From the sequence record PQ510734.1: a DNA stretch of 64,000 bases; one strand, given 5' to 3'. The notes beneath the pieces are model-generated. The model did no database searches and had not been told where the DNA came from. It saw only the letters and a program-made list of their open reading frames with translations. Both the position numbers and the translations under genes were made by a program. Below, in pieces: positions 23,832-24,194 of the stretch (its first letter is position 1; each line of letters starts with the position of its first letter). The stretch comes from Escherichia phage A6-6.

Positions 23832-24194
23832 ATGAAAGCATATCAAATTCTTGAAGGCACACATAAAGGTACTATTTATTTTGAAGATGGTATTCAAGCG
23901 CGAATTATTGTCTCTAAAACCTTTAAAGAGGACTCTTTTGTAGACCCAGAAATTTTCTATGGTTTGCATGCCCGTGAAATTGAAATTGAAACACAACCTA
24001 CAGTTAAAATTGAAGGTGGTCAACACCTGAACGTTAACGTTCTGCGTCGTGAAACTCTGGAAGATGCAGTTAAGCATCCGGAAAAATATCCGCAGCTGAC
24101 CATCCGTGTATCCGGTTATGCAGTTCGCTTTAACTCTCTGACTCCGGAACAGCAGCGCGACGTTATCGCTCGTACCTTCACCGAGAGTTTGTAA
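23832..24194 (+). CDS. Autonomous glycyl radical cofactor (GrcA/YfiD-like)
   Basis: 120-aa ORF; C-terminal ~60 aa ([61 protein letters not shown]) match the E. coli GrcA glycyl-radical domain as recalled. Confidence 0.8.

Follow-up and report, generated by a model that had tools for sequence, protein, structure and literature searches.

The vs.6 gene of the T4-type Escherichia phage A6-6 (23832-24194, + strand) contains a tract of 169 nt that is 100% identical to the grcA gene of E. coli. The tract is found in two genera of E. coli phages, different phages carry different donor alleles, and its 3' edge shows a gradient from host-type to phage-type bases. Taking all lines of evidence jointly, we consider it likely that the protein Vs.6 (Y06I) is a GrcA-type protein which rescues pyruvate formate-lyase (PFL), and that its radical domain has been converted repeatedly from host grcA. 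Unless a contig or another record is named, the positions given below are those of the window, i.e. the whole stretch of 64,000 nt (PQ510734.1) that was analysed.

The vs.6 gene and its surroundings

The window belongs to a T4-type phage, with the T4 lysozyme gene at 21428-21922 and regB at 25012-25473. Over 23000-25000 the identity to T4 amounts to 96.9%, and the values for other Tequatrovirus genomes reach up to 97.7%. The ORF of 120 aa at 23832-24194 is located between the orthologs of vs.7 and vs.5, in the same order as in T4, and was identified as vs.6, encoding a GrcA-type autonomous glycyl-radical cofactor, on the basis of the ORF itself, the synteny with T4, and the matches in Pfam and PDB. 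The encoded protein is identical to T4 Vs.6 in 119 of the 120 residues (T54 against P54) and fully identical to the proteins of RB68 and many other Tequatroviruses, which have been annotated as 'autonomous glycyl radical cofactor GrcA'. The upstream neighbour vs.7 matches the Pfam family Phage_T4_Y06J, which fits the equation of vs.6 with Y06I, the T4 homolog to which the earlier note had pointed. The gene is already known and annotated and the biochemistry of the T4 protein is known, and the annotation itself is nothing new.

A putative Shine-Dalgarno-like motif, GAGG (23823-23826, + strand), can be read directly from the sequence 5 nt before the ATG of vs.6, where it overlaps the vs.7 stop codon TGA (23822-23824). 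At the other end of the ORF the stop codon overlaps the start codon of vs.5 (ATG at 24194) within the motif TAATG (24192-24196, + strand), an overlap between ORFs that is kept in the relatives. A scan for promoters and terminators between 22800 and 25100 yielded a number of sites that was no higher than in shuffled sequence.

The vs.8 ortholog (22848-23498) starts with GTG and has an in-frame stop at codon 34 (22947-22949), which is a Tyr codon in T4, leaving an ORF of 33 codons and an ORF of 179 aa that restarts at 22959. Between the lysozyme gene e and vs.8 (21923-22958), where T4 has ipIII, ipII and denV, the window has two other ORFs (22011-22328 and 22345-22818). Both have an internal-protein-like leader, MKTY(K/Q)EFI, and the second one belongs to DUF7412 and is weakly similar to IpII. 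Neither denV nor ipIII was found by tblastn anywhere in the 64 kb. Eleven tRNA genes (Gln, Leu, Gly, Pro, Ser, Thr, Met/CAT, Tyr, Asn, His and Arg) form a cluster at 15464-16484, the most GC-rich part of the window, against eight tRNA genes in T4. The region of the tRNA-Tyr gene matches the record of a 102-kb plasmid of E. coli O111:H8 at 90.5%. Finally, two genes downstream of vs.6, the vs.4 ortholog (24408-24674) encodes a protein that is 100% identical to T4 Vs.4. Homologs of this protein carry the Pfam domain Acb2_Tad1_hairpin (anti-CBASS protein Acb2), and hence an anti-defence gene is found near vs.6.

The host-identical tract and its donors

The vs.6 gene could be sub-divided into three parts. 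The 5' part (23832-24009, + strand) is AT-rich (GC 0.333, GC3 0.186), follows the codon usage of the phage and encodes a diverged homolog of GrcA residues 28-67. It is followed by the host-derived conversion tract of 169 nt (24010-24178, + strand), which encodes the structured glycyl-radical domain and, compared codon by codon, has no mismatch with grcA of E. coli strain SK1144. The 3' edge (24179-24191, + strand), consisting of the third base of codon 116 and the last four sense codons, has retained the phage-type sequence, as follows from the comparison with E. coli and with older relatives. When the region is extended to 24194 the identity to grcA is 97.3% (180/185), a value obtained with every one of the 5426 complete E. 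coli genomes. None of the five differences changes an amino acid, and they are confined to the last five sense codons, which read TTC ACC GAG AGT TTG in the phage and TTT ACT GAA AGC CTG in E. coli.

Upstream of 24010 the nucleotide similarity to grcA collapses. The composition of the 3' part of vs.6 (GC 0.497, GC3 0.459) is that of the 3' part of E. coli grcA (GC 0.497, GC3 0.426), in a window with an overall GC of 0.351, in line with the GC-rich, host-like codon choice that had been noticed in the 3' half of the gene. Of all stretches of 183 nt in the 64 kb, only 0.69% reach a GC of 0.497, and most of these lie in the tRNA cluster. Megablast against E. coli genomes returned no other chromosomal match in the 64 kb, the tract being the only matching segment. 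Near-identity to the host, diverged phage sequence on both sides and a shift in composition, the marks of a host-to-phage conversion, are thus found together.

The distribution of the tract was assessed in 56 sequences of Tequatrovirus and Mosigvirus, the phages of the E. coli type, of which 48 are distinct at the nucleotide level. They were taken from IMG/VR, GenBank phage records and public assemblies. In all 56 the tract is of the E. coli type and has an identical 5' junction (ATT|GAA at 24009/24010). The tract forms an island of identity between the two genera. Compared with Mosigvirus RPN187, the window is 71.5% identical in vs.7, 88.8% in the 5' part of vs.6, 100% in the core, 61.5% in the last 13 nt of vs.6, 69.8% in vs.5 and 72.6% in vs.4. 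The 20 differences among the 178 positions of the 5' part, as opposed to none among the 169 of the core (Fisher p = 1.2e-6), indicate that in both genera the core is of far more recent origin than the remainder of vs.6. The E. coli-type tract persists even in Tequatroviruses that were isolated on Salmonella, Citrobacter, Yersinia or Hafnia, which implies that the tracking of the host is not strict.

The gene is also present in RB49-like phages, in T4-like phages of 174-180 kb, in T5-like phages and in jumbo phages. A host-identical tract was not found in these groups, in which the tail is 70-85% identical to the sampled bacterial grcA genes with identical runs of at most 35 nt. In several of them GC3 is elevated in the tail, which is what old transfers in decay would leave behind. 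Weaker hints of a host-like tract are given by L031, which is 91% identical to a Yersinia grcA, and by L023, which shares an identical run of 53 nt with a Haemophilus grcA.

The 3' junction of the tract is ragged. Among the 45 non-chimeric alleles from E. coli phages, the non-host state was counted in 2 at position 24176, in 8 at 24179, in 16 at 24182, in 44 at 24185, in 38 at 24188 and in 25 at 24189, and the host-type bases thus thin out towards the stop codon. The allele of the window is among the least converted ones, with the phage-type base at all five sites from 24179 to 24189. It is exceeded only by the allele of AV120, which is phage-type at 24176 as well, whereas T4 is phage-type at two of the edge sites. 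The older T4-like relatives (L014-L020) have the state GAG AGT YTR, and so the edge codons have been retained from the phage and did not arise from host sequence by mutation. The last ~23 nt of the Jiaodavirus alleles are fixed in the phage-type state, with 7-8 differences from the host alleles including an S-to-A change, and in one Jiaodavirus allele (L177) two of the first 12 nt of the domain are phage-type as well. Such edges are to be expected if conversion tracts must end inside the region of homology. The last ~15-25 nt, which also contain the overlap with the start of vs.5, would then keep their phage-type bases. Downstream of the stop codon the host has unrelated sequence, and the phage requires TAATG for the start of vs.5. 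The ribosome binding site of vs.5 (GAGAG upstream of its ATG) was also considered as the main cause of the five terminal changes, and was rejected in view of the GAA codon in T4, the states in the older relatives and the positional gradient.

The donor of the tract can be identified at the level of the species and even of the allele. The phages of E. coli carry at least two exact E. coli grcA alleles. With the most common variant of the phage core, 24050C (8 of the 45 alleles), the core becomes 100% identical to the grcA of other E. coli strains, and the variants 24032T, 24056G, 24113A and 24035A of the phage alleles are likewise polymorphisms of Escherichia grcA. Four of the five polymorphisms of three further Escherichia alleles recur in phage alleles, for which the probability by chance is about 0.02 (by rough arithmetic that considers synonymous changes only). 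One phage core, with 24014G and 24035A, is a single mismatch away from 589 E. coli genomes. Part of the shared polymorphisms could be parallel mutations at four-fold sites, and the number of independent host-to-phage events in the E. coli phages is uncertain. Another Tequatrovirus allele (L256; OQ446694.1, 301-663) has nine synonymous core differences from E. coli and a 5' part that is 1 nt away from that of the window, which hints at a donor other than the E. coli alleles sampled here, perhaps in another Escherichia species.

The Klebsiella phages represent a cleaner case for many events than the E. coli phages. A scan of metagenomes with a degenerate pattern for the Klebsiella-type tail yielded 63 bacterial grcA genes (33 tail alleles) and four phage genes. 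Eight alleles of the Klebsiella phages of Jiaodavirus differ from each other at 0-9 of the 177 sites of the 5' part and at 0-1 of the last 26 nt, and at 1-16 of the 148 sites of the core, the core being more divergent than the 5' part in 27 of the 28 pairs. The cores of L182 and L028 correspond to the bacterial L172 group (20 contigs) with identical runs of 158 and 140 nt, that of L177 to the Raoultella-like L173/L187 (155 nt), and those of Kp17-11 and GF to the bacterial L180 (164 and 146 nt, respectively). For PKO111, K65_evo8, 311F and L256 the bacterial sample contained no exact donor. The donors of the Klebsiella phages are Klebsiella/Raoultella-like metagenome contigs, 91-96% identical to the nearest named sequences (a Klebsiella sp. 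MAG and a Raoultella sp. MAG). A tblastn search of the Klebsiella-type contigs with E. coli EamB, for chromosomal context, gave no match. Their bacterial origin follows from the full-length GrcA of the MITGIQ type and from the length of the contigs, which is up to 1.6 Mb. Across these alleles diversity in the core is low where host grcA is near-monomorphic (E. coli) and high where host grcA is diverse (Klebsiella), the core being a cold spot in the one case and a hot spot in the other. This pattern is predicted by templating on the host, and not by vertical descent.

The sharing of the tract might also have come about by one recent transfer from host to phage, followed by spread from phage to phage across Tequatrovirus and Mosigvirus in co-infection and without any ongoing templating by the host. 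T-even phages recombine freely, as is well established, and the 5' junction is the same in all alleles of the E. coli phages. Nevertheless, we hold this explanation to be rather unlikely. Exact matches to different E. coli alleles occur among the phage cores, which bear four further polymorphisms of Escherichia, the Jiaodavirus cores match different alleles of the Klebsiella/Raoultella type while their flanks are constant, and the ragged 3' endpoints argue for many separate events. What the alleles point to is several independent conversion events, where part of the pattern in the E. coli phages could still result from phage-to-phage spread. The proposal of the earlier note that the 3' part is a host-derived patch therefore holds with respect to the origin, but the idea of a single event has to give way to repeated conversions from host alleles.

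Protein function, nucleotide conservation and direction of transfer

Vs.6 is a small stand-alone protein of 120 aa (in the class of ~14 kDa) that lacks the catalytic barrel domain of the glycyl-radical enzymes. Residues 61-120 are identical to residues 68-127 of E. coli GrcA at 60 of 60 positions, turning the near-exact match that had been noticed into a complete one, and residue 60 is I where GrcA has V. The description of the protein as a GrcA-like spare part agrees with the Pfam domain Gly_radical (PF01228) on residues 60-101 (67.2 bits, cut-off 22.2) and with the alignment by phmmer of residues 22-120 to PDB entry 6owr, the NMR structure of E. coli GrcA (E 4.6e-42). Residues 697-759 of PflB align to the protein as well (E 4.8e-26), and NrdD is absent from the PDB matches. 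The best-scoring family is NCBIfam TIGR04365 (spare_glycyl; residues 20-120), with a score of 154.6 bits that lies below the equivalog cut-off of 170 because the N-terminal half has diverged. The C-terminal domain contains the glycyl-radical motif RVSGYAV. Its Gly95, encoded by the GGT codon at 24114-24116 (+ strand), aligns with G102 of GrcA and G734 of PflB and is predicted from these homologs to be the radical glycine.

In a BLASTP comparison with GrcA 1-67, the N-terminal 60 residues of Vs.6 are 35% identical over 40 residues (GrcA 28-67; E 2e-6), so that the homology to GrcA, as in the alignment with 6owr, extends into the N-terminal half. The characterisation of this half as phage-specific was right in that it is diverged and has the codon usage of the phage, and wrong in so far as it implied an unrelated sequence. 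Consequently, the whole of vs.6 is an old homolog of grcA, the 3' part of which has been overwritten.

In GrcA of E. coli (YfiD) residues 1-60 are disordered and help in the binding of cleaved PFL and in the installation and activation of the radical, and residues 61-127 constitute the structured domain that substitutes for the lost C-terminus of PFL (PMC8683613). The host-identical tract of the phage gene matches this structured domain almost exactly. T4 Y06I, when activated by PFL-AE, rescues O2-cleaved PFL in vitro, according to the citation of Wagner 2001 in PMC8683613. By analogy with the homologs, the PFL-activating enzyme of the host (PflA) would place the radical on Gly95, and the C-terminal domain of Vs.6 would dock into host PflB that has been cleaved by oxygen at G734 and restore its activity. 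The rescued PFL could keep the production of acetyl-CoA, ATP and formate running during micro-oxic infection. One group of class III reductases, which includes that of E. coli, takes formate as reductant (PMC11226230), and it is plausible that formate made by PFL feeds the class III ribonucleotide reductase of the phage, and hence its dNTP synthesis. We infer from these relations a support of glycyl-radical enzymes in micro-oxic infection, as had been suggested earlier.

The genes of the phage reductase provide a functional context outside the patch, ~18 kb downstream of vs.6. The presence of nrdD (42138-43955, + strand) and of nrdG (43952-44422, + strand), which encodes the activase of the phage glycyl-radical enzyme NrdD, had been claimed before and is borne out by Pfam, with NRDD (572 bits) and Gly_radical, and with Fer4_12 and Radical_SAM, respectively. 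The nrdD gene is a single uninterrupted ORF of 605 aa, whereas nrdD of T4 (sunY) carries a group I intron. Megablast of the two genes (42138-44422) gave no match to E. coli. Their occurrence in the same genome, and the phage-specific sequence of the N-terminal half, which in YfiD governs the binding of cleaved PFL, could be taken to mean that Vs.6 serves NrdD, or that it is a decoy that titrates the PFL-activating enzyme or blocks PflB, in each case without any benefit from the repair of PFL. We regard such a role as quite improbable, given the restoration of O2-cleaved PFL by T4 Y06I in vitro that PMC8683613 cites, and given a radical domain that is of the GrcA/PflB type and not of the NrdD type, in agreement with the E-value for PflB and the PDB matches described above.

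A few phages have a damaged vs.6 gene. In RB55 a deletion of 13 nt (GGTTATGCAGTTC; KM607002.1, L166 310-675) removes GYAV, including the radical glycine, and shifts the frame, and the gene is unannotated in the record. The gene is frameshifted in a Jiaodavirus-like contig (L028, 1501-1866), and the annotated product of KMB39 has 76 residues. Judging from these three alleles, vs.6 evidently can be lost and is dispensable in culture.

The comparison that the earlier note had named as decisive for a host origin is that of the nucleotide identity with the level given by protein conservation alone. In 13 bacterial species in which the tail protein is identical, the median pairwise nucleotide identity of the tail is 0.869. 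The closest tail to that of E. coli outside Escherichia is found in Citrobacter amalonaticus (0.928), and that of another Escherichia species reaches 0.989. The 169-nt core of the phage scores 1.000 against E. coli, 0.988 against another Escherichia and at most 0.917 against other genera, and its match is specific to Escherichia among 80 other species. The T4-like phages L014-L016 also encode the identical tail protein, at a nucleotide identity to E. coli grcA of 82.5% and with a longest identical run of 17 nt. The identity of the tract, 169 of 169 nt, is far above the level that results from protein conservation. An ancient acquisition, the nucleotide identity of which has been kept by selection on the protein and on the codon usage of a highly expressed gene with host-optimal codons, is extremely unlikely in the light of these data. 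It is true that grcA consists of strongly preferred E. coli codons and that the domain is 100% conserved in the protein, but species and phages with the identical 60 residues share only 82-93% of the nucleotides, the 5' half of the very same gene has a GC3 of 0.19, and the match is specific to Escherichia.

The GC3 of the tract equals that of host grcA, along which GC3 is uniform, and the bacterial grcA alleles diverge in step with taxonomy. From the composition and from this vertical pattern among bacteria we infer the direction of the transfer, from host to phage. In three metagenome phage contigs of ~167-179 kb with the gene at 301-663 of each locus (L257, ERZ27257999 k141_196509; L281, ERZ28619812 scaffold_3; L287, ERZ28584014 scaffold_2) the sequence runs from vs.7 and vs.6 through the tract into E. 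coli DNA, with the last codons in their host-type form, the terminator region of grcA and eamB (LysE), within ~1-2.4 kb of a contig end. Most probably these contigs are chimeras created by the assembler at the repeat of 169 nt, genuine hybrid molecules of phage and host being a less probable alternative. Transfer in the opposite direction, from the phage into its host, and artefacts of assembly or contamination can practically be dismissed: the three contigs join vs.6 to E. coli eamB at the patch and near their ends, where assemblers can be misled, but in the genomes of hundreds of cultured phages, T4 among them, the tract has phage sequence at either end, host grcA is uniform in composition and diverges vertically among the Enterobacterales, and the phage-type 3' end is present in no bacterial allele.

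Two sequences of a related kind were encountered. A bacterial grcA gene (L243; OIEZ01001054.1) encodes a GrcA-type N-terminus and start of the domain and a PflB-type end (…SLTKEQQQDVITRTFTQTM), which could have arisen by conversion between grcA and its paralog pflB of the same genome, or else by misassembly. The other sequence (L171) encodes a full-length glycyl-radical enzyme, one segment of which is identical in protein sequence to GrcA of the Klebsiella type.

In the preferred reading of repeated conversion from the host, vs.6 as a whole is an old, AT-rich grcA homolog of the phage, of which only the structured radical domain has stayed similar enough for homologous recombination. Fragments of the host chromosome would then repeatedly convert the middle of the domain (here 24010-24178) to the grcA allele of the current host, with degraded host DNA as the likely supply of the invading fragments. 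T4 reportedly recombines efficiently with homologous cytosine-containing DNA over at least ~50 bp of homology, in the work of Singer (1982) and in the T4 insertion/substitution system. A bolder reading, which we put forward only tentatively, is that the core is a cassette that virulent T-even phages rewrite from the chromosome of their current host, at a rate of conversion above that of mutation and thus in concerted evolution with host grcA. The converted alleles could have been fixed either by selection, for a match with the activase and the enzyme of the host, or neutrally. The residue states E77/K81 versus L77/E81 follow the clade of the host, and conversion may be favoured since it keeps the domain compatible with host PflA and PflB.

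Significance and comparison with known systems

In the open-access literature we found no reports of a recurrent, nucleotide-identical conversion of vs.6 by host grcA. The case is possibly new as a clean natural example of a strictly lytic phage that degrades the DNA of its host and yet repeatedly copies a segment of the host chromosome, with donors at the level of the allele and with endpoints that can be mapped. If this holds true, T4 and E. coli would offer a tractable system to determine the rates, the homology needs and the tract lengths of host-to-phage recombination. The tract could then serve as a built-in marker of the recent host species of a phage, and even of the host allele, and those Tequatroviruses that were obtained on Salmonella or Citrobacter but have the E. 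coli-type tract would be recognised as phages that recently grew on E. coli. It would also provide a concrete case for asking whether such exchange is adaptive, in matching the activase and the enzyme of the host, or a neutral by-product of homology. For metagenome assembly and for filters against host contamination the tract constitutes a warning, as phage sequence passes into E. coli sequence at this very position in three public contigs.

The closest known system is Vs.6 (Y06I) of T4 itself, an ortholog with the same neighbours vs.7 and vs.5 and the same E. coli-identical tract (no differences in the core), from which the allele of the window is distinguished by phage-type bases at five instead of two sites of the 3' edge. 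With E. coli GrcA (YfiD; 6OWR) Vs.6 shares the size class, the C-terminal 60 residues including RVSGYAV and a homologous N-terminal half. It differs from GrcA in that this half is 7 residues shorter and 35% identical over the 40 aligned residues, in its score below the equivalog cut-off of TIGR04365 (154.6 against 170), and in that its gene is subject to the expression signals of the phage and overlaps with the adjacent genes. The C-terminal glycyl-radical domain of PflB/TdcE has the same fold and motif (PflB 697-759, E 4.8e-26), whereas Vs.6 is devoid of a catalytic barrel and the nucleotide match of its tract is to grcA and not to pflB.

Finally, intragenic recombination between host and phage is known for psbA and psbD of the cyanophages (Zeidner 2005; Sullivan 2006, PMC1484495). 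These are, like vs.6, host-like metabolic genes in T4-like phages, with a patchy GC content and with segments that have been exchanged with the host (PMC1484495). Unlike in the cyanophage genes, the tracts in vs.6 lie between phage flanks that stay constant, agree to 100% with host alleles that can be identified, and are confined to a single structural domain. In addition, the host is an enterobacterium, and the transfer is seen only in the direction from host to phage.
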